From Spirochaetia bacterium (GTDB lineage Bacteria; Spirochaetota; Spirochaetia; CAKZLE01): DNA of 64,000 nt. The stretch is from positions 3,648,001 to 3,712,000 of the forward strand of contig OY782041.1 of assembly GCA_963677595.1 (NCBI GenBank), read 5' to 3'. The notes under the pieces were generated by a model that ran no database searches, was not told where the DNA came from, and saw only the letters and a list, made by a program, of their open reading frames with translations. How positions within the stretch are numbered: the stretch's first letter is position 1; each line of letters starts with the position of its first letter. Shown piece after piece: positions 31,199 to 62,006 of the stretch. Made by a program: the position numbers and the translations under genes.

Positions 31199-32197
31199 AT
31201 GAGGGCTGTGGTACGAACGGCCTATGGGCCGCCGGAGGTGCTCGAGCTTGCAGAACTCGCTGACCCTGTCCCCTCGGACGGTGAGGTGCTCATCCGTATA
31301 CATGCCGCCTCGGTGACCGCGGGTGACTGTGAGATGAGACGGCTGAAGCTGCCTCTGGGCCTCTCGTTCCCCATGCGTCTCTATTCCGGCTGGAGGAAGC
31401 CGGTACGGCTTCGTATCCCGGGACAGGAACTGTCCGGGACGGTCATCGCGACCGGGAAGGATGTGAAGGCCTTCCAGGAAGGAGACCAGGTATTCGGGAC
31501 CACGGGGTTCACCTTCGGTGCCTGCAGCGAGTTCATCTGCCTGCCTGCACACCCAGGGGATGCCCAGGGCGTCCTGACGACCAAACCGGAGAACCTTACC
31601 TTCGAGGAGGCCGCCGTCCTCCCGACTGCCGGGATGGAGGTCCTCCACTATTTCCGGGAGGCTGGGACCCAGGCAGGGGACAAAGTGCTCATCATAGGGG
31701 CTGGGGGCAGCATCGGGACGCTGGCCGTCCAGTATGCGGTCCATCTCGGTGCTGACGTGACTGCGGTGGATCGTGCCGTGAAGCGGGATTTCCTGCTCGA
31801 CCTTGGCGCTGAACGGTTCATCGACCATACCGCAGCTGACCTTACCAACAAAAACGGACCCTATGATCTGGTCATCGACCTCGTCGGGCAGGGGTCGGTA
31901 CGCAGGAGGCTGGGGCTGCTCAAGTGGGAGAGGGGGATGTACTTCCTCGCCTTCGCCCATGTACGCCATATACTGCTGGGGCTGGCAGTGAGGCTCCTGT
32001 TTGGGAAGAGGCTGAGACTCGATTCCTCAAAACAGCGAAACGAAGAGCTTGAGGAGCTGCGACGATTTGCCCAACAGGGGATCCTGAAGCCCGTGGTGGA
32101 TCGCAGCTTCCCGCTCGAGGAGATCGTTGAGGCCAATCGGTACTGCGAGAGCGGGGCCAAGCGGGGGAGTGTCGCGATTACTGTTATCAAAGAATAG
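31199..32197 (+). CDS. NAD(P)-dependent medium-chain dehydrogenase/quinone oxidoreductase
   Basis: YGPPEVL, VLIIGAGGSIG and LKPVVDRSFPLEEI. Confidence 0.88.
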   Translation: MRAVVRTAYGPPEVLELAELADPVPSDGEVLIRIHAASVTAGDCEMRRLKLPLGLSFPMRLYSGWRKPVRLRIPGQELSGTVIATGKDVKAFQEGDQVFGTTGFTFGACSEFICLPAHPGDAQGVLTTKPENLTFEEAAVLPTAGMEVLHYFREAGTQAGDKVLIIGAGGSIGTLAVQYAVHLGADVTAVDRAVKRDFLLDLGAERFIDHTAADLTNKNGPYDLVIDLVGQGSVRRRLGLLKWERGMYFLAFAHVRHILLGLAVRLLFGKRLRLDSSKQRNEELEELRRFAQQGILKPVVDRSFPLEEIVEANRYCESGAKRGSVAITVIKE

Positions 32198-33203
32198 TAA
32201 GATCAGCAGCAACGTCTTCCTGAAATGATGAGCTGAAGGCTTTATCATAGACTTCATCAAGACTCTTAAGCGCCTCTGGACTCCAGTTCGCACCCCTCTC
32301 GATCTCATACAGATAGTTGTTTCTTGACCTGACCCTGTATCTGGGTATCAGGATGACTTTTTCAATTGAAGGAGCATAATTAAGATGGTAGAGGCACATT
32401 CTGAGATGGACTATGTATGCCCTCAGGATTATCGTCTCATCATCAGACTGAAAGAACGTCTCATAAGGTCTGTGCATGCGTTTTGCAGCCATGATGTCCC
32501 TGTCGAGGTAGATTCCATTCTTATTCGCATAGCTGTATAAGACCTTTAACGTTTTCAGATACTGCGGTGAGACATTCCTCTCTTTATGGTAGTCAAGGTG
32601 AGTCAAGAATTCATCGTATTCATTCACGACTACTTCACAAATCTCATTTCCTGAGGAATCAAAACCCCAGTATTCGATATCTTCCCAGGGGCCATGATCA
32701 TTATAGAATCCTTCAGCAGGTAGTTCCTTGACCCTGATGATGTCTCTTTTCACAGCAGCCTGAAATTTCCTTTTCATGGGATAGTCGGCATCGAACAATT
32801 TGTATTGGAATACCTTATCCTGTTGATAATCGGTATCGACTGGACATAAGCTTTCCAGCACCTCCTTCCAATCAGGATTGGTATGGGGCCACAAGAGAAT
32901 CAGATCAGCTTTAAAGAATGTGTATCCCTCAAACTTTTCAAACTCATGCTCATTGCAGACCAGCAGATCTATATCCTGCAGCCCCCCGAGGAAGCTTCGC
33001 TTTATGGTAGCCCCATATTTTGTGCGTCGAATTTCTTTATCTGTTGCAAGGACGAGCAGCAGATCAATATCATTGGGTTGTGGACTACCCTTGGAAAATG
33101 ATCCGAAAATGTACAGGGACTTTACCAGTGGTTGAAAACTGCATTGCATGAATCTCTTCAAGAATTTCCCATATAATTGGATTGCTTCATCTCGCTGCAT
33201 CAT
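32187..33203 (-). CDS. Pol-beta/MNT-type nucleotidyltransferase-domain protein with unknown C-terminal region
   Basis: LYIFGSFSKG-x4-NDIDLL plus a third Asp (DIDLLV); visibly AT-rich DNA; GAGGTG RBS. Confidence 0.75.
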   Translation of the reverse strand: MMQRDEAIQLYGKFLKRFMQCSFQPLVKSLYIFGSFSKGSPQPNDIDLLLVLATDKEIRRTKYGATIKRSFLGGLQDIDLLVCNEHEFEKFEGYTFFKADLILLWPHTNPDWKEVLESLCPVDTDYQQDKVFQYKLFDADYPMKRKFQAAVKRDIIRVKELPAEGFYNDHGPWEDIEYWGFDSSGNEICEVVVNEYDEFLTHLDYHKERNVSPQYLKTLKVLYSYANKNGIYLDRDIMAAKRMHRPYETFFQSDDETIILRAYIVHLRMCLYHLNYAPSIEKVILIPRYRVRSRNNYLYEIERGANWSPEALKSLDEVYDKAFSSSFQEDVAADLTIL

Positions 33204-33420
33204 ACACCTCAAAACTAAAAACAAAGAATAACACCTGCGTGCTATATGTAATATAAAACTATGGTATCACAGAGAGGGAGGTAAAAAAAGTTGCTAATAC
33301 GAGGTATGTCAAGCTAAAGAGTTCAGCTATGTGCCCTGTTGGATCGGGATGTACGTGTGTACTCAGGTGGGCAGTTGAATACCCGGAAACGTGGCTTATG
33401 GTGTGAACTAAACAGGCCAA

Positions 33421-33452
33421 ATAAAAAAGGAGCAGACCTGAAGTCCGCTCCC
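33421..33452 (-). terminator. Rho-independent terminator of groES
   Basis: GGAGCAGAC/GTCCGCTCC stem with a poly-T tail on the minus strand. Confidence 0.7.
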
Positions 33453-33475
33453 GTTCACTGAAAGACTGATGCGTG

Positions 33476-33742
33476 CTAGTCGATTACAGCGAGGATATCA
33501 GCCATGTTGACGAGCAGGTGATCGACACCGTCTACCTTGATGGCAGTCCCGGCATACTTGTCGTACATGATCTTGTCGCCGACCTTGACGGTGATGGCGT
33601 CATCATCGGTGCCGACAGCGACGACGACAGCTGTCTGAGTCTTCTCCTGAGCTGTCTGCGGGATGAAAATCCCTGATGCTGTCTTCTCTTCTACCTGTTC
33701 AGTCTTTACCAGAACTCTGTCCCCAATCGGTTTGATTGTCAT
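33476..33742 (-). CDS. groES: Co-chaperonin GroES
   Basis: IKPIGDRVLVK, EKTASGIFIP, KVGDKIMYDKYAGT and DILAVID; TTGACC-N17-TATATT promoter upstream. Confidence 0.97.
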   Translation of the reverse strand: MTIKPIGDRVLVKTEQVEEKTASGIFIPQTAQEKTQTAVVVAVGTDDDAITVKVGDKIMYDKYAGTAIKVDGVDHLLVNMADILAVID

Positions 33743-33937
33743 TATCATCGACCTCCATATTCTTATGTTATTGATTGTACGGATTATTCCTAGAAAATAT
33801 AGGCATGTTGGCCCGCAAGGTCAAGTATTTTCGATGAAAAGCGGTTGAAATCGGTCATGAACAGCCGATATACACCAGATAACAGATTGTTATACTTTTC
33901 TCTTGTCTTTGTCGGGACACCTTCGTATATTAAGCCC

Positions 33938-34465
33938 ATGAGAGAGGTTAGGGAACTGATAGAACAGGGAAAGCATGAACTCTTCGAGAACAGGTCGGAT
34001 GTGAGCGTACATACCTTCAAGGAAGCGCTCTGCTCCTGTGGAGACGATGATCCCATGTGCATGGGGGAGATCTTCTTCTTCCTCGGACTGGCCTACCGGA
34101 ACCTCGGGCATACGCAGTATGCCCTGCGCTGCTGGGAGAACGCGTCCTTCATCAGGGACAAGCAGGATGAGATCAATGACAAGGACTGGAGGGTGTTCCA
34201 CACGATCCAGACGAGTCGCTACCTCATCGGCAAGGGGACGGGCAAGTTCGACACCATCGCCGAGAGCGACATGATCCATGACCTCATCAGGATGACCTGG
34301 TATGAGATCTGCGATCTCGAGGGCTTGAGGAAGATGTCCTATTATGAACGGTGCGGCTATTACCGCTCCATCAGGATCTCCTTTCCAGAGATCACCTTGA
34401 GGAATATGGTCGAGAATACTCCCGATTCGGGTCAAATTGTCCCATTTATGAAGCCCAAACATTGA
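33938..34465 (+). CDS. Hypothetical TPR-like protein
   Basis: FFLGLAYRNLG...ALRCW TPR-like helix pair; ATG 6 nt after a TATATT -10 box. Confidence 0.7.
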   Translation: MREVRELIEQGKHELFENRSDVSVHTFKEALCSCGDDDPMCMGEIFFFLGLAYRNLGHTQYALRCWENASFIRDKQDEINDKDWRVFHTIQTSRYLIGKGTGKFDTIAESDMIHDLIRMTWYEICDLEGLRKMSYYERCGYYRSIRISFPEITLRNMVENTPDSGQIVPFMKPKH

Positions 34466-52891: not shown

Positions 52892-52941
52892 AGAGGGCTT
52901 GAGCGCAGGGAGAGGTGGGAGTACAATAGGGGTATGAGGAG

Positions 52942-53874
52942 ATGAGTATGGGTGTAGAGAGAAGGATACGCGAGGTCCTCTGGAGCAAGGGGACTGTTGA
53001 GGGTGCAGGGGTGAAGCTGAAGCGTGCGTTCGGCTTCCATGAGAAGCCGCAGTTCGACCCCTTCCTCCTGCTCGATGATTTCAGGTCTGATGATCCCTCC
53101 TCCTTCGAGAAGGGGTTCCCCTGGCACCCCCACCGGGGGATCGAGACGGTGACCTACCTGCTCACCGGTTCTGTCGAACATGGCGACAGCCTTGGGAACC
53201 GCGGAGTGATCAATGCCGGGGATGTCCAGTGGATGAGCGCGGGCAGCGGCATCATCCACCAGGAGATGCCGAAGGGAGACGGAACGGGGCTGCTCGAGGG
53301 GTTCCAGCTGTGGGTGAACCTGCCCGCATCGAAGAAGATGTCAGACCCCGCCTACCAGTCGATCACCAGGGATATGATCCCTGAACTCTCCTTCACCAAC
53401 GGGATGGAAGTACGCCTGGTCGCAGGGGACGTCTCCGGGATCAGGGGGCCGGTTCGGGATCCCTATACCGACCCTGAACTCCTCGATATAAGGATGCCGC
53501 CGCACACGACCTATACCCACCCGACAAAGAGGGGCCATACGGTGTTCACCTACGTCATAGGAGGAGAGGCCCTCTTCACGAAGGACCAGCATGAGTTCTC
53601 ATGTGACGAGGAGAGTGAGAACTTCACCAATGCATCCCGTCACAGGAACTACCATGATGGGGCGGTCCTCCTCTATACCGACGGGAGCCAGATCACCTTC
53701 ACGACCGGGGAATCCCCGGTGAGGTTCATCCTGGGGGCCGGGAAGCCGCATCATGAACCAGTGGCATGGTACGGGCCGATCGTCATGAACACCCGGAAGG
53801 AGCTCGATGAGGCCTTCCGTGAGTACCAGGAGGGGACCTTCATCAAGGTCGGTGCGGGAGATGTCCATGGCTGA
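52942..53874 (+). CDS. Pirin family protein
   Basis: DPFLLLD, HPHRGIETVTY, GSGIIHQE, FQLWVNLP and YGPIVMNT. Confidence 0.95.
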   Translation: MSMGVERRIREVLWSKGTVEGAGVKLKRAFGFHEKPQFDPFLLLDDFRSDDPSSFEKGFPWHPHRGIETVTYLLTGSVEHGDSLGNRGVINAGDVQWMSAGSGIIHQEMPKGDGTGLLEGFQLWVNLPASKKMSDPAYQSITRDMIPELSFTNGMEVRLVAGDVSGIRGPVRDPYTDPELLDIRMPPHTTYTHPTKRGHTVFTYVIGGEALFTKDQHEFSCDEESENFTNASRHRNYHDGAVLLYTDGSQITFTTGESPVRFILGAGKPHHEPVAWYGPIVMNTRKELDEAFREYQEGTFIKVGAGDVHG

Positions 53875-54322
53875 GATCCGCTACACCCATACCAACCTGG
53901 TCGCCGGTGACTGGAAGGCGCTCGCCGCCTTCTACATCGACGTATTCGGCTGCACCCCGGTACCGCCGGAACGGGACCTGGCCGGCAGCTGGATAGACCG
54001 GCTCACCGGGATCGATGGTGCCCGTATCACCGGGACACACCTGCTGCTGCCCGGTTTCGGCCCTGGTGGGCCGACCCTCGAGATCTTCCAGTATGAGCCG
54101 GACCATAAACCTGGTGACCCTGACCCGATCAACCGGCACGGGTTCGCCCATATAGCTTTCCACGTCGATGATGTGAGGCAGCTGGTGGACCGCATCATCG
54201 AGGGGGGAGGGTGCCTGCTTGGTGAGCTTGTGGACAGGCAATATGAGGACGGGAGGGTATTGACGGTCGCTTACTGCAGGGACCCGGAGGGGAACTGCCT
54301 GGAGATACAGAATTGGAGTTGA
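53867..54322 (+). CDS. VOC/glyoxalase family protein
   Basis: HTNL, FYIDVFG, LEIFQY, HIAFHVDD and RDPEGN. Confidence 0.9.
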   Translation: MAEIRYTHTNLVAGDWKALAAFYIDVFGCTPVPPERDLAGSWIDRLTGIDGARITGTHLLLPGFGPGGPTLEIFQYEPDHKPGDPDPINRHGFAHIAFHVDDVRQLVDRIIEGGGCLLGELVDRQYEDGRVLTVAYCRDPEGNCLEIQNWS

Positions 54323-54340
54323 TTACAAGGAGATACACCT

Positions 54341-55042
54341 ATGGGACGAGCCAAGACTTTTCTGGCCTACTACAACAAGATCGAGAAGACACTCGAATCA
54401 CTCTATACCGGTCCTGAAGAACATATGAGCTTCTATGAGCTCATCCAGACCTTGCGGCGGACCAATAGGCAGGTAGCCTATTTTGCCGATGAGCTGCACG
54501 AGTACCGCACCCTGCGGAACGCCATCGTGCATGATACCGTCGGTGACATGGTGATCGCGGAACCCTGTGAGACCGTCGTCGTGAGGATCAGGAAGATCCA
54601 TGAACTGCTGACGAAGCCGGCACTGGTCATGGACCTGTGCAAGGGCCAGGAGGTCGTGAGCCTCACGTTCACCGACAGCCTGCAGCAGGTCCTCTCCCTC
54701 ATCCGTGATACTGGGTATTCCCAGTTCCCGGTCATCGACTGCAAACGGGTCATCGGGATCCTCACCAGCCATACCGCTGCCTCATACCTGGCAGACAGGA
54801 TGCAGGGGAACGAGTTGATCATCGACAAAGCGACCGTCTCGGACCTCTTCAGGGTCAGCGATGACAAGGAGGACTTCATGGTCATCGCCAGGACCTCGAC
54901 CGTATATGATGTGAGTGTGCTGATCAGGAAACACCCGAAGGTCTCGATGTTCATCGTGACCGAGAGCGGTAAGCCGACACAGCACCTGCTCGGCGTGCTG
55001 ACAGCAGCTGACTTCCACCGGGTCTACGGGATGAGGAACTAA
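54341..55042 (+). CDS. HEPN-like domain fused to a CBS pair
   Basis: N-terminal helical domain with FLAYYNKIE and LRNAIVH (RxxxxH); C-terminal YSQFPV...GILT and LLGVLTAAD CBS motifs. Confidence 0.8.
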   Translation: MGRAKTFLAYYNKIEKTLESLYTGPEEHMSFYELIQTLRRTNRQVAYFADELHEYRTLRNAIVHDTVGDMVIAEPCETVVVRIRKIHELLTKPALVMDLCKGQEVVSLTFTDSLQQVLSLIRDTGYSQFPVIDCKRVIGILTSHTAASYLADRMQGNELIIDKATVSDLFRVSDDKEDFMVIARTSTVYDVSVLIRKHPKVSMFIVTESGKPTQHLLGVLTAADFHRVYGMRN

Positions 55043-55051
55043 CAGGCTCCC

Positions 55052-55753
55052 ATGACATTGAGAGAGCGCTATAGCCAGATATATATGCAAACCCTTGAGA
55101 CGATCGAACGGGATGGGTTCTCCTATGATACCACGATCATCGAACCATCTGATGATCGGTACGGTCTCACTCTCATCGGGAGGATGACCTCTGGAGGACT
55201 CCATTCGGAGGTGCAGGGACTGTACGGGGAGATCGGGAAGGCTGCCCCCGGCAGCTACCTCTATCCGGTAGCGGACCTCCACATCACGGTGCTGAGCCTC
55301 ATCGAGTGTGCGGCGGGCAGGACCTTCAGCCCCGATGAGCTTCAGGAGCATGCCGCCCTCCTTATGGAAGCTCTCCATGATGTCGGGCCGATCCGCGTCG
55401 ACGTCACCGGCCTGATCGCCTCTCCCACCTGCCTCATGCTCGCGGGCTACCCTGAACATGATCAGCTGAACCACCTGCGGGACCGGATCAGGTCAGGGTA
55501 TGGGAAGCATCCTTCGATCTCCCATACGATCGACTCACGGTATACCCAGGTGACAGCCCATGTCACGATCGCCCGCTTCACCCGGCCGGTGAACGACAGC
55601 AGGAGGGTATTGGACATCCTGGAACGGTACCGGAAGCACCCCTTCGGGAAGCAGGTTCTGAGGACTCTCGAACTCGTGACGAACGACTGGTGCCTCACGT
55701 CCGGGAGGACGAAGAAGATCGCTGTCTTCCCCCTGCGGGAGGATCATACGTGA
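55052..55753 (+). CDS. 2H phosphoesterase (2'-5' RNA ligase/cyclic phosphodiesterase-like)
   Basis: Two HxT motifs: DLHITVL and AHVTIARF. Confidence 0.82.
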   Translation: MTLRERYSQIYMQTLETIERDGFSYDTTIIEPSDDRYGLTLIGRMTSGGLHSEVQGLYGEIGKAAPGSYLYPVADLHITVLSLIECAAGRTFSPDELQEHAALLMEALHDVGPIRVDVTGLIASPTCLMLAGYPEHDQLNHLRDRIRSGYGKHPSISHTIDSRYTQVTAHVTIARFTRPVNDSRRVLDILERYRKHPFGKQVLRTLELVTNDWCLTSGRTKKIAVFPLREDHT

Positions 55754-56637
55754 GCCTGATAGACCTCCACATCCACAGCAGGGTGAGCCTAGACGGTGAG
55801 TTCTCCCCGGCTGAACTCGTCTCGAAGTGCGCTGCTGCAGGCCTTACGTACATCTCGGTGACTGACCACAACAGCTGCAGGGCGGTCGCCGAGGCAGTCT
55901 CACTCGCAGTCCAGGCGGGTATTACCTGCATCCCGGGGATTGAGATCGACTCGATCTTCGAGGGTAGGAACCTGCATCTGCTCGGGTACGGGGTAGATCC
56001 CGCCGCTGAGACCTTCGAGGCACTGCATGTTCGGGTGCTGGAACGGGAGCGGAGTGTCTCCTTCGAGCGCATCGAGCGGGTGAACCGCCTTGGGTTCGAC
56101 CTCTCCATCGAAGATTTCCCGCAGTTCGAATCGCGGGGGACCGTTGCCCCGGAAGATATTGCGGCAGTACTCCTCTTGGCAGAGGATGCCGACAGCATCG
56201 ACCTGCTAAAGCCCTACCTGCCCGGCGGCAGCCGGTCAGACAACCCCTATGCGAACTTCTACTGGGACTTCTTCGCTGACGGTAAGCCCTGCTGGTGCGA
56301 TATGGGGTGGATCACGCTGCAGGAGGCCGTGAAGCTGGTCATCGATGCAGGGGGAGTCCCCGTCCTGGCTCATCCCGGGGTCACCATCGGTCGCGATGAG
56401 GAGACAGCAGAAAAGGTCGTGGAATTGGGCGTGCAGGGGATCGAGTGCTTCTCTTCCTACCATGACTCGAAGATGAGTGAGTCCTGGTATGCGTTTGCGA
56501 AGCACCGCGGTCTGACGGTAACTGCCGGGAGTGATTACCACGGGTATTTCAAGCCTTCGGTGAAGCTCGGCGGCGACCATGCGACCATAGCTGATGAAGA
56601 ACTCTTAGACTGTATCGATAGACTCATCCGGAAGTGA
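55750..56637 (+). CDS. PHP-domain phosphoesterase (TrpH/YciV-like)
   Basis: DLHIHS..SLDG, VTDHN, GIEI, HLLGYG, VLAHPG and GSDYHG; GTG start overlaps the upstream stop. Confidence 0.9.
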   Translation: MSLIDLHIHSRVSLDGEFSPAELVSKCAAAGLTYISVTDHNSCRAVAEAVSLAVQAGITCIPGIEIDSIFEGRNLHLLGYGVDPAAETFEALHVRVLERERSVSFERIERVNRLGFDLSIEDFPQFESRGTVAPEDIAAVLLLAEDADSIDLLKPYLPGGSRSDNPYANFYWDFFADGKPCWCDMGWITLQEAVKLVIDAGGVPVLAHPGVTIGRDEETAEKVVELGVQGIECFSSYHDSKMSESWYAFAKHRGLTVTAGSDYHGYFKPSVKLGGDHATIADEELLDCIDRLIRK

Positions 56638-56647
56638 GGGGGAAACC

Positions 56648-56839
56648 ATGAAAAGACGACTGTTCCTACTGTTCTCAGGGATCGAATGCGCAACGCTCGC
56701 GGTCCTGATCTATCTTGCTCTTACTGCCCTGCAGGCAGCAGGGCTCGATGCACGCATCCTGCTGAGCATCATCTTCCCACTCTTCGTGTTCATCGTGCAG
56801 TACTTCATCTATGATGCTGCCTACACTATGGGGGAATAG
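56648..56839 (+). CDS. Small two-TM membrane protein
   Basis: GAGGGGG RBS and two hydrophobic helices. Confidence 0.65.
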   Translation: MKRRLFLLFSGIECATLAVLIYLALTALQAAGLDARILLSIIFPLFVFIVQYFIYDAAYTMGE

Positions 56840-57982: not shown

Positions 57983-58461
57983 TCAAGCGGTATCAAGCGG
58001 GACTGGAGGGGGAGATCTCACACTTCATCCGACGGGTCTTCGATCAGTTCATAGGCAGGGACTACTCAGAGGAGGGCAGGGAGACGTTCTACCGGTTCAC
58101 ATCCCCGGAATCGATCCGTTCGAACTTCCTTGGGCAGAATCTCCTGCTGTGCCACTACAGCGGCGATGTCCTTACCGGGGTGATAGCTCTCCGGGCCCCT
58201 GGGCATATCAGCCTGCTCTTCGTCGACCCCCAGTACCACCGGCAGGGCATAGCTTCCGGCCTCTTCAGGGAGCTGCTGCACATCCTGCCCGATGCGTCGG
58301 TCCACCTGAGCGTGAACTCCTCACCCTACGCGGTCGAAGCCTATGGGCATCTGGGGTTCGAGGTGAGTGACCTAGAGCAGCTCAAGGATGGGATCATCTA
58401 TATCCCCATGCGCACTACCCTGGATGCGGGACAGCTGCTATCCCGGATGACCCTAGCGTGA
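57979..58461 (+). CDS. GNAT family acetyltransferase
   Basis: HISLLFVDPQYHRQGIA and VNSSPYAVEAYGHLGF. Confidence 0.88.
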   Translation: MIKRYQAGLEGEISHFIRRVFDQFIGRDYSEEGRETFYRFTSPESIRSNFLGQNLLLCHYSGDVLTGVIALRAPGHISLLFVDPQYHRQGIASGLFRELLHILPDASVHLSVNSSPYAVEAYGHLGFEVSDLEQLKDGIIYIPMRTTLDAGQLLSRMTLA

Positions 58462-58496
58462 TTGACATCGGGTACGCAACACCCTATATTCATGGT

Positions 58497-59759
58497 ATGG
58501 ATCAAGAGTTCGAGTTCCGCCTGGACAATGCCGCAAAGATCTTCGCCGCTCAGCACTCAAAGCGCCGGACCACCATGTTCAGGCTGTCAGCGGACCTGTC
58601 TGAGCCAGTGAACCTCGATCGGCTCACGACTGCCTACGAGCACATGCTCATTCGGTGTCCTTATTACCGGGTGCAGTTGAGGAGGGGACTCTTCTGGTAC
58701 TATATCGAGCCGTGTGAGACGAAGGCCCATGTCGAGGCTGAGAGTCGATATCCCTGCATGTACATCCCATTCAAGCGACGCGGTATGCTCCCGTTCCGGG
58801 TGCTTGCCTATAAACAACGGATCATCTTCGAGGTCGCCCATCTCATTACCGACGGGACTGGTGCCCTCGAGTTCCTCAACGGCATCATCCTCGAGTACCT
58901 GCGCCTTGGCGGGCACGAGATACCATCCGAGCATATGGTCCTTGACTGCCGGGAGCCCCTGGACCCGGCGGAGTTCGAGGACAGTTTCCAGCAGCTCTAT
59001 GAGAAGGGGATCCCCGGCCCGGTCAAGACCGACCGTGCCTACCAGGTCAGGGGGAGGGCGCTTCGGGTACCGCGCTATGATATCATCGAGGGGATCATGG
59101 AGAGCGATGCCCTGAAGCTGGAGGCGAAGAAGTACGGTGCGACCATCGGCGAGTTCCTCACGGCCCTCCTGCTCGACACCCTGATGAACGATATGCTCGT
59201 CCATAGCCGCCGGAAGAAGCCGGTGAGGATAAGCATCCCGATAAACCTGCGGAAGATGTTCCCCTCGCAGACCATGCGGAACTTCGCCCTGACGATCGAA
59301 CCCGGCATCGACCCGAGGCTCGGTTCCTTCAGCTTCGAGGAGATCGTGGAAAAGGTGAGGCAGTTCATGAAGATGGAACTCGACCAGCGGTCCATCAAGC
59401 GACAGATCGCGAGGAATGTGGGGAGTGAGCGGAATCCCTTCGTGCGGATCATCCCACTCTCCCTCAAGGATCCCATCCTGAGGAAGTTCTATGAGCGCTT
59501 CGGCAGCATCACCTTCACGCTGAGTCTCTCCAACCTCGGGAGGGTAGAGCTGCCCGAGGGAATGAAAGAACATGTGAGGGCCTACCAGTTCATCCCGCCG
59601 CCCCACGGGAGGAAGCTCAGCGTCACCTCCATTGCCTACGGGGGGAAGACCAGCATCATCTTCGGGAGTACGATCACGAATACCGAGATCGAGCAAAGTT
59701 TCTTCTCAAAGTTGAGAAAGATGGGGATCCATGTCACAATAAAGACGAACAGGAGATGA
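58497..59759 (+). CDS. Alcohol acetyltransferase/condensation-domain-like acyltransferase
   Basis: RLDNAAKIF, RRGLFWYY, HLITDG (HxxxDG), PINLR and LSNLG. Confidence 0.8.
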   Translation: MDQEFEFRLDNAAKIFAAQHSKRRTTMFRLSADLSEPVNLDRLTTAYEHMLIRCPYYRVQLRRGLFWYYIEPCETKAHVEAESRYPCMYIPFKRRGMLPFRVLAYKQRIIFEVAHLITDGTGALEFLNGIILEYLRLGGHEIPSEHMVLDCREPLDPAEFEDSFQQLYEKGIPGPVKTDRAYQVRGRALRVPRYDIIEGIMESDALKLEAKKYGATIGEFLTALLLDTLMNDMLVHSRRKKPVRISIPINLRKMFPSQTMRNFALTIEPGIDPRLGSFSFEEIVEKVRQFMKMELDQRSIKRQIARNVGSERNPFVRIIPLSLKDPILRKFYERFGSITFTLSLSNLGRVELPEGMKEHVRAYQFIPPPHGRKLSVTSIAYGGKTSIIFGSTITNTEIEQSFFSKLRKMGIHVTIKTNRR

Positions 59760-60631
59760 TGAGTATGCCATATTGCCCGAGATGCGGAGTGGAGATCGAA
59801 GACCGGCTTGAACGATGTCCCCTCTGCGAGACCCCGATCCCCCATGCCGTCAGGGATGCTGAAAAAGCCCATGAACGCGATTTCCCCAAGGATGTGATTC
59901 GCCCGAAGCCGATGTACCGTGAGCTTTCTGATAAGGAGAAGCGGGTGCTCGTGACCGGGTTGATTGCCTTCGTTGGCCTCTTCCCCATCGCCATCACCAT
60001 GGGACTTGACCTGCTGCGTTCCGGCAGGGTCACCTGGTCTTACTATGTGCTCGTGCCGGTATTGGGTGCTGCACTCATCGCCTGGTTCTTCTACCGGTTC
60101 GGGAGGAGACCGCTGGTCTCGGTCACCACCTGTATGGTCATCCTCCTCCTGATCGAGATCCTCATCGAGATGAAGGTCTCCTCCGTGAGCAGGTTCCTCA
60201 TAGAGGACCTTCCATTCTTCGCCGCAGCCTTCCTCGCGATCGAACTGCTGCTCATCTTCATCGTGAAGGCACACCCGAACCCCGTGCAGCTGCTGGCCGT
60301 CATCTTCATCGACACGTCACTCCTGGTGATCGGGATAGACTGGATCATCTCCCAGTCGGTCTCCTGGTCAGGGATCGTGACTGTATGCCTGTTGTGGGTA
60401 TCGGTCTACCTGATCTATATCGACAGGACCAAGAGACGGGGCCTCAACATCATCGGGTTCCTCTTTCTCGATGTAGCCATGATGCTGCTCTCCCTTGAGC
60501 TGGCGATCAGCGGGAGGATGAACTGGTCGATCGTGACGACCATGATCTTCATACCGATCAGCATCCTCTTCTACATCCTCCACCTCACGCTGTTCAACGA
60601 CACGGACTGGAAGAAGGCCCTGCACCTGTAA
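59756..60631 (+). CDS. Zinc-ribbon membrane protein (DUF6320-like)
   Basis: YCPRCGVE...CPLC, multiple TM segments, C-terminal KKALHL; coupled to the acyltransferase. Confidence 0.75.
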   Translation: MMSMPYCPRCGVEIEDRLERCPLCETPIPHAVRDAEKAHERDFPKDVIRPKPMYRELSDKEKRVLVTGLIAFVGLFPIAITMGLDLLRSGRVTWSYYVLVPVLGAALIAWFFYRFGRRPLVSVTTCMVILLLIEILIEMKVSSVSRFLIEDLPFFAAAFLAIELLLIFIVKAHPNPVQLLAVIFIDTSLLVIGIDWIISQSVSWSGIVTVCLLWVSVYLIYIDRTKRRGLNIIGFLFLDVAMMLLSLELAISGRMNWSIVTTMIFIPISILFYILHLTLFNDTDWKKALHL

Positions 60632-60666: not shown

Positions 60667-61098
60667 CTACCTGCAAAACACCTGGATGGTGGCATCCTCG
60701 GAATCGACATCAACCTTCAGCTCCTCGAGGGCACTCATGAGCTCCTTGATGTTGTCAGGCTTGATGTTGCTCAGGTCGAAGGCGACCCCGTTCTCAGCCA
60801 TGGATGACTGTATCTTCTCCTGTGCCTCCTTCGGGATCAGCCCGGCGATGTTCAGCCCTGCCTTGAGCAGCGCGAAGGGAACCTTGACCGAGACCCGGTC
60901 CTGTGATTTCCCCTCCTTCGGCTCCACCTGGACGTAGAGGTACTTGTTGTCGAAGGCATCCCCGATCATACCGTTGACATCCAACGGCTGTGCCGGGACC
61001 CTGCTCGTCTCCACTGCGCTGAGCAGCTTCTCTGCCTCCTCAGCGGTGATCTTCCCTTCTGCGAGCATCTGCAGGATGCGTAATCTCTCTTCAGCCAT
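60667..61098 (-). CDS. SHOCT-like domain protein (YvlB/LiaX N-terminal-like)
   Basis: EERLRILQMLAEGKITAEEAEKLL and VSVKVPFAL. Confidence 0.8.
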   Translation of the reverse strand: MAEERLRILQMLAEGKITAEEAEKLLSAVETSRVPAQPLDVNGMIGDAFDNKYLYVQVEPKEGKSQDRVSVKVPFALLKAGLNIAGLIPKEAQEKIQSSMAENGVAFDLSNIKPDNIKELMSALEELKVDVDSEDATIQVFCR

Positions 61099-61118
61099 GA
61101 TAAATCTCCTATAAAACC

Positions 61119-61385
61119 TTACTTCACGAACAGTGATATATCTGAATCATTCGAATGAAACTCTACTTCGGTCCCCCTCATCGAGGAGAACAGCACCGGG
61201 AGATGGAGGAAGATGCGCACCGCACCCTCTGCAGACAGGGACCCCGACAGTCTGGTGAAGGGGTAGGCGATGATGCACAGCACATAGAACGGCAGCAGCA
61301 GGATGTATACCAGCAGCAGGGGCAGCAACAGCCGAAAGGAGTGGTTCTCATCCCGGATTCGTATCCACAGGATCATGGGCAGCAT
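61119..61385 (-). CDS. Small membrane protein of the DUF2089 operon
   Basis: Hydrophobic core LLLPLLLVYILLLP; coupled to the upstream gene. Confidence 0.7.
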   Translation of the reverse strand: MLPMILWIRIRDENHSFRLLLPLLLVYILLLPFYVLCIIAYPFTRLSGSLSAEGAVRIFLHLPVLFSSMRGTEVEFHSNDSDISLFVK

Positions 61386-61750
61386 CAGCTTATCTCCTTC
61401 AGTGCATCCTCTGCACTGATCTCACCCCGTTCGAGGCGGTCGAGGACCGTCGAGACCGACTCCTTGATGTCGACGGTGATCCCCACGATCTCGAGCTTGC
61501 CCGCTATGGCATTGAGCCGGTTCTTCACGGTCGGGTAGCTGATCCCGAAGATGGTTTCCATCTGCTTGATCGAACCATGCGTCTTGATGAAGGCAGCCAC
61601 GAAGAGCTGGTCGTCCATGCCAAGCTGTGCGAGCGGGGGTACGTCAAAGGTCCCCTCGATCTCGATATCCTCCTCCGGGATATAGACCTTCCTGATCTGG
61701 AACTTCCTGTCCCCTACGAGGGAACTCAACTTCTTCCAATCGTGTCTCAT
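61385..61750 (-). CDS. DUF2089 family HTH/SHOCT protein
   Basis: FIKTHGSIKQME...ISYPTVKNRL and LDRLERGEISAEDAL; GGAGG RBS. Confidence 0.85.
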   Translation of the reverse strand: MRHDWKKLSSLVGDRKFQIRKVYIPEEDIEIEGTFDVPPLAQLGMDDQLFVAAFIKTHGSIKQMETIFGISYPTVKNRLNAIAGKLEIVGITVDIKESVSTVLDRLERGEISAEDALKEIS

Positions 61751-62006
61751 CGCTTCCTCCGATACTTGAATGATACGGCTGTACTTGAAGAAAGTCAAGT
61801 ATAAACTTAAATAAATTAATTGTAGAATTAATAAAATTAATATTTACATTGGCATAGATGAAAATCATGTACTGAGGAAGACAGTAAAGCCTCCTCAGGA
61901 CGAAGGCGGCAATACCTGCTGCGGGAAGCCAGGGTTTCGATAGATTTTGAAAAATACCCATTCCTATGATAGGGTAGAGTATAACGAAAAGTCATAAGGA
62001 AAAAGT

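Follow-up and report, generated by a model that had tools for sequence, protein, structure and literature searches.

What is the function of a HEPN-like domain fused to a CBS pair in a spirochaete chromosome, and do the 2H and PHP phosphoesterase genes behind it belong to the same function? The initial annotation saw in these three genes a nucleotide-gated RNase encoded together with the enzymes that process its product ends or destroy its activator. According to our analysis, the HEPN-CBS protein may well be a stand-alone nucleotide-gated RNase whose 2H and PHP neighbours are incidental, a reading to which we assign a probability of about 0.5. The window, by which we mean the whole analysed stretch of 64,000 nucleotides, contains the locus as a co-oriented run that is followed by a LacI gene:

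52899..52927, plus strand: sigma-70-like promoter match ahead of pirin, a weak one
52942..53874, plus strand: pirin gene, first of a likely transcription unit (Pfam; order common to two other genomes of the genus, G001 and G002)
53867..54322, plus strand: VOC/glyoxalase-family gene directly 5' of the HEPN-CBS gene (Pfam; order common to the same two genomes)
54341..55042, plus strand: gene of the HEPN-CBS fusion, 233 aa, on which the finding centres (reading frame, Pfam, model, alignment)
55052..55753, plus strand: 2H phosphoesterase gene, 233 aa, a local neighbour (HxT motifs, PF13563)
55750..56637, plus strand: YciV/TrpH-type PHP phosphoesterase gene, 295 aa, a genus-local neighbour (alignment to 2yb1)
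56648..56839, plus strand: 63-aa hydrophobic ORF at the end of the co-oriented run (homologue in G002)

All three genes were confirmed, intact and at the places first proposed for them, including the 233-aa product with its LRNAIVH stretch and CBS pair. The spacing was also borne out: the 2H gene, with its two HxT motifs, starts at the ATG at 55052, 9 nt past the HEPN-CBS stop, and its TGA overlaps the GTG at 55750 with which the PHP gene begins (GTGA), a GGGAGG site lying 5' of this GTG. A longer PHP start at 55690, taken from the ORF lister, was rejected in favour of 55750 on account of this ribosome-binding site and of homologues that align from residue 4. The caveat entered at the outset, that the trio sits within a longer run of co-oriented genes, holds as well. 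The promoter match comes from a scan that was not above chance (4 sites seen vs 3.1 expected). The GC3 of the HEPN-CBS, 2H and PHP genes (0.74-0.79) resembles that of nearby housekeeping genes (0.72-0.81), and there is therefore no sign of recent insertion.

Some other parts of the window may be recorded here. Its sole low-GC stretch (32001-34000, 0.45) lies around a lone groES, which is flanked by two ORFs without a Pfam match (32187-33224 and 33845-34465). At 58458-60631 a 433-aa ORF without a Pfam match, which we take to resemble alcohol acetyltransferases, is followed by a zinc-ribbon/DUF6320 membrane protein, and on the minus strand at 60667-61798 a small membrane ORF separates a SHOCT-like from a DUF2089 gene.

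The answer depends in the first place on the two halves of the fusion protein, whose features are as follows:

54341..54616, plus strand: minimal HEPN domain, residues 1-92, with helices at 3-21, 31-39, 43-64 and 77-91 (model, fold matches, HEPN Pfams)
54515..54532, plus strand: R59-N-A-I-V-H64, putative RNase motif with which the long helix closes (alignment of 151 sequences)
54617..55039, plus strand: CBS pair (Bateman module), residues 93-233 (Pfam, Foldseek, VIA)
54992..55012, plus strand: G218-V-L-T221-A-A-D224, sole intact ribose-phosphate motif of the pair, in repeat 2

A profile search returned 897 representatives (50% clusters) of the HEPN-CBS family at E<=1e-30, and the best of them were aligned with the query and P0005, which gave 151 sequences with a median identity of 28%. 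Throughout this alignment R59 and H64 are invariant (151/151 each) and N60 is kept in 150/151, and the motif is thus no chance occurrence. The RNxxxH motif, contained in LRNAIVH at residues 58-64, closes helix 43-64 in the alignment-based model of the whole protein (pLDDT 90.5), where four helices (3-91) precede the CBS pair. The isolated domain (residues 1-94, modelled from the single sequence, pLDDT 63) was compared by VIA with 48,161 chains, and the top four, 1wwp, 5yep (SO_3166), 1jog and 7ae2, are all HEPN, with modest scores (Z 8.6-8.1, rmsd 2.7-2.9, 90-94 residues aligned). AbiA, an AMPylated HEPN toxin, 2hsb, MtlR, YutE and Csm6 come next among the first 14. VIA itself warns that a common arrangement of helical bundles can give a Z of this size, and Foldseek with the isolated model found nothing at E<=0.001; the HEPN assignment thus rests on the VIA ranking together with the sequence. 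When the whole protein was used, CBS matches filled the fold lists, and a PDB sequence search returned CBS parts only. HEPN Pfams were weakly matched by family members at E<=0.05 (RiboL-PSP-HEPN in 28/141, HepT-like in 24/141), the window protein itself having a faint HepT-like match at 31-65 (E 0.042).

In the accessible text of PMC3710099 the HEPN signature is described as an Rx4-6H that ends helix 3 and whose R is followed by a polar residue, together with an acidic position in helix 2. E15 in the first helix of the HEPN-CBS protein, a position acidic in 128/151 relatives, fits the upstream acidic residue; its basic partner in Ex3[KR] is kept in 92/151, and the window protein has E at that last position. 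The canonical helix 1 appears to be absent from the modelled window protein, because its matches start at residue 24-44 of the top solved HEPN chains. When the window protein is compared with those of G001 and G002, conservation is higher in the HEPN domain (71-72%) than in the CBS pair (57-58%). One may suppose that such a domain is no RNase but an RNA- or protein-binding or dimerisation part of a CBS regulator, or else a small-nucleotide nuclease, and the seemingly missing helix 1, the modest fold scores, the absence of an antitoxin gene and the existence of a CBS-only relative would agree with this. We regard it as improbable: the exposed R, N and H are practically invariant over 151 sequences at ~28% identity, and conservation of this kind is tied to catalysis in the part of PMC3710099 available to us.

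For the second half of the protein, Pfam recognises CBS in two stretches (E 4.5e-12), and the fold of the pair matches AcuB (Foldseek E 4e-8), 2rc3 (VIA Z 14.2) and other adenylate-binding pairs. The ribose-phosphate motif of CBS domains, given as G-h-h-S/T-x-x-D/N in the accessible text of PMC11172384, is intact in repeat 2 of 131/151 relatives and in repeat 1 of 2/151. Being intact almost solely in repeat 2, it suggests at the sequence level one predicted nucleotide site per chain, and the expected canonical motif of the pair is thereby found. Family members that bear a name are recorded as CBS protein or as hypothetical, much as had been foreseen for automatic annotation; under the label of a CBS domain protein, the family is hidden in at least hundreds of lineages, in which a core enterococcal gene is included.

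The two downstream enzymes keep the catalytic residues of their families. The 2H protein carries HIT (77-79) and HVT (170-172) and matches PF13563 at E 8.5e-7, above the cut-off of that family. It has the two HxT motifs and PF13563 in common with LigT-like 2H enzymes, and differs from them as a longer (~230 aa) uncharacterised subgroup without a solved relative by sequence; no relatives of it were found in viral contigs. The PHP protein (Pfam E 5.6e-12) has its closest known counterparts in the YciV/TrpH family (Cv1693, 2yb1; RNase AM/Rnm, 7ug9): it matches Cv1693 at E 1e-24, and all nine metal-ligand positions align with 2yb1 (H7, H9, D15, H40, E65, H76, H208, D262, H264). It falls under every NCBIfam equivalog cut-off (133/400, 101/500, 94/375).

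The initial annotation joined the three genes in a module, where 2H would open the cyclic-phosphate ends left by the RNase or destroy its activator, and PHP would remove the remaining phosphate. The tight spacing, the compatible chemistry, the catalytic residues kept by both enzymes, the 2H gene being the sole PF13563 match in the window's genome, and the same trio in G001 (pirin-VOC-HEPN/CBS-2H-PHP-LacI) all speak for it. The related genomes tell a different story. In G002 (86% complete) the run lies on one contig without 2H, and PHP follows ~90 nt past an HEPN-CBS gene whose product is still 91% identical to that of G001; as these two genomes are each other's closest relatives among the three, a loss of 2H in G002 is the simplest account. 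PHP adjoins HEPN-CBS in all three genomes of the genus (window, G001, G002), a point that counts against our preferred reading. In two further members of the family (G003 and G005; 93% and 96% complete) HEPN-CBS is present among unrelated genes, and a genome-wide search of both found neither PF13563 nor, at 1e-10, anything matching the window's PHP. Among the four related carriers, 2H is thus beside HEPN-CBS in one and PHP in two.

More distant loci were scanned by tblastn, 80 from genomes and 80 from metagenomes (the latter kept of 557); the effective sample is below 160, because at least 1.8 kb of downstream sequence is available in 74 genome and 50 metagenome loci only and many loci are kin. 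2H was found in 0/160 of them and PHP in 1/160, at a distance of 3.3 kb (L199). A 2H motif scan of 4,237 ORFs around the loci gave no further 2H: of four motif matches, two lacked any Pfam assignment, one fell in an HEPN-CBS protein, and the fourth was the 2H gene of G001 already known. Three partial PHP matches (L089, L094, L102) were dropped, the loci having come from generic CBS matches and not from HEPN-CBS. Seen from the other side, an orthologue of the 2H gene occurs in 6/150 related genomes besides G001, and in none of the six was HEPN-CBS seen; there the gene adjoins HAD hydrolases, methyltransferases and transporters. It is also the fastest to diverge, with 40% identity to G001 vs 49-67% for the neighbouring genes, and on the contig of a close strain it is 89% identical to the window gene vs 99% for HEPN-CBS. 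The recurring partnership on which the module was to stand is, across lineages, largely absent; as a conserved unit the module is largely refuted, and we hold it to be very unlikely. The trio is an operon arrangement at the genus level, with 2H and PHP likely incidental neighbours; a functional link restricted to this genus may still exist.

The HEPN-CBS gene itself is present in 4/5 other genomes of the window's family, its neighbours differing between the two genera, and the family's copies form one clade with FastTree support of 0.999 (72 of 169 sequences entered the tree after near-duplicate removal). Among five shared genes compared between G001 and G002 its product is the most conserved (91% vs 68-79%). 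A sample of 300 genomes of the phylum gave no full-length HEPN-CBS besides the window's own, and one CBS-only match. Two unusual relatives were also noted: at L123:4523-5026 (G088) an ORF within a cysK-iscS-iscU-Rrf2 run matches the CBS half and has no HEPN, and at L008:3010-4878 a 622-aa ORF spans the HEPN-CBS match and ends in a DNA alkylation repair domain (PF08713), a possible fusion.

Three stable housekeeping settings of the gene emerge among 84 clustered loci; the genome loci (80 kept of 86) had been found with the pattern [QRT]LRNAIVHD and are biased to enterococci. In the first setting the order is CBS-lspA-rluD-pyrR, with pyrR downstream in 48/84; in the second ileS is nearby (14 loci); the third is murJ-CBS-murB (7 loci). 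A piece of the E. faecalis chromosome has the order fhs-CBS-lspA-rluD-pyrR, which agrees in order and gene lengths with EF1725-EF1721 as given in the accessible text of PMC7701990, and EF1724 is thereby a member of the family. The same text reports EF1724 as conserved in 100% of 24 Enterococcus species, which makes HEPN-CBS, on that source, a core chromosomal gene in Enterococcus. Its Tn-seq class there is "Important", yet the gene-centric p is 0.54 and the gene overlaps the critical lspA; going by those published data, the fitness call is weak and may involve a polar effect on lspA. On mobile DNA the gene is rare (3/50,697 phage records, 5/72,556 plasmids and one IMG/VR locus), and the one phage record inspected is a piece of host chromosome. 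In OR846607.1 (L122:5001-5705), filed as an Enterococcus phage, we observed the host run ebsA, fhs, CBS (= EF1724), lspA, rluD and pyrR.

Defence systems are the other surrounding in which relatives appear. From 81 loci in metagenomes and viral records, 16 were hand-picked by Pfam hints or by absent annotation; PADLOC, run on the neighbouring genes in these, gave six specific matches, three generic helicase/WYL ones, one partial Tmn and six without any. In L127 (6001-6717) the HEPN-CBS gene belongs to a PDC-M54/type I restriction-like operon, where it overlaps the HsdS stop and precedes HsdR; in L184 (6001-6717) it stands between a DUF1156 methylase/PLD-helicase pair and Zorya type I (ZorA, an OmpA-domain gene, ZorC, ZorD). 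Other copies are near HsdR (L156, L176), PDC-M45B and TmtA (L140), PDC-S14 (L160), BrxL/PDC-S11 (L070), a IIG enzyme and a TIR protein (L118) and SIR2-HerA (L119), and two of the three plasmid loci inspected lie by defence genes. The plasmid copy beside SIR2-HerA (L119:5953-6519) is annotated as a 94-aa CDS beyond which the match runs further, and it is possibly broken. The copies in defence islands are scattered over the family tree.

That some relatives lie in defence islands favours a defence role, and we count it against our preferred reading. The window protein could be a single-gene anti-phage effector, in which an adenine nucleotide altered by the phage activates the RNase and the infection is aborted. 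A precedent is DS-11 (E. coli WP_000257686.1; NCBIfam NF053863; DefensePredictor), according to the accessible text of PMC13092281 a validated anti-phage CBS-then-HEPN protein, whose defence needs both CBS Y157 and HEPN residues and for which gating by an adenine derivative was proposed. DS-11 is built from the same two parts, and the patchy occurrence of HEPN-CBS in the phylum would also suit such a role. Yet the window copy is not surrounded by defence genes, PADLOC at 1e-10 giving no match on the 10 genes flanking the trio and at most a weak one on the trio itself; the gene is vertically retained in the family with high conservation and is core in Enterococcus on the published account, and the six clear defence contexts come from hand-picked loci. 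Membership in DS-11 was rejected, the protein scoring 27.4 bits vs the cut-off of 260, with the CBS part alone matching and the domain order reversed, and the NF053863 cut-off was exceeded in 0/5 family genomes. We find a defence role for the window copy rather unlikely.

We return to the stand-alone, nucleotide-gated RNase. What is said of its dimer and ligand, and of its target and the direction of its control, is drawn by analogy from HEPN and CBS proteins already known. Two HEPN-CBS chains would pair. On binding of an adenosine ligand, which may be AMP/ADP versus ATP, or Ap4A, at the sole intact CBS site, their R59/H64 motifs would meet in a single active site, which would work without metal and cut RNA to leave 2',3'-cyclic phosphate ends. 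The ligand may either hold off or switch on this solitary dimeric RNase, the CBS pair standing in for an antitoxin, which would fit HEPN-CBS being a solitary gene. During energy or redox stress the protein may, in the window lineage, trim RNA or translation; such a role is likely because of the chromosomal inheritance of the gene behind pirin and glyoxalase genes. Through an RNase switched directly by the AMP/ATP balance or by Ap4A, bacteria would couple RNA turnover to their energy state in a simple way. We may even suggest, quite tentatively, that the ~235-aa family is a housekeeping RNase which reads the adenylate state via one CBS site, cuts RNA on energy failure, is core to all enterococci (EF1724) and was taken up more than once by defence islands, inside type I restriction operons and beside Zorya; if true, this would link metabolic RNA control with nucleotide-triggered immunity.

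How does the protein compare with known systems? No study of the HEPN-first family or of an HEPN-CBS/2H/PHP module was found in the literature searched, which lies mostly outside subscription journals; the supplement of PMC3710099 may list the family. With the HepT toxins (SO_3166, 5yep; 7ae2) the window protein has the HEPN fold and Rx4H in common; unlike HepT, its gene has no adjoining MNT antitoxin gene, the neighbours being VOC and 2H, and no nucleotidyltransferase was found among the scanned neighbours of its relatives. Csm6 (CARF-HEPN) follows the same logic of sensor plus HEPN, whereas the window protein has no CARF and no cas gene was found among the flanking genes scanned. EF1724 belongs to the same family, with 234 aa, LRNAIVH and 32% identity over the full length; it differs in its neighbours and is annotated just as "CBS domain-containing protein" (PMC7701990, accessible text). 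As far as the available text of PMC3710099 goes, Anantharaman et al. 2013 predicted HEPN-CBS(-HD) fusions as ligand-controlled RNA regulators; they resemble the window protein in coupling nucleotide sensing to RNA stability, the examples cited include HD-fused forms, and all are predictions only. In the literature searched, no characterisation of such an adenylate-switched HEPN-CBS RNase was found. DS-11 shares the design, a CBS pair and an HEPN domain in one protein, in a different layout: by the published description CBS (Y157) precedes HEPN (mutant R330A) in its ~365 aa, and the window protein has 233 aa with HEPN first (R59). The HEPN-CBS protein of the window is thus likely a variant of an already predicted design, which has been shown in one anti-phage protein, DS-11.
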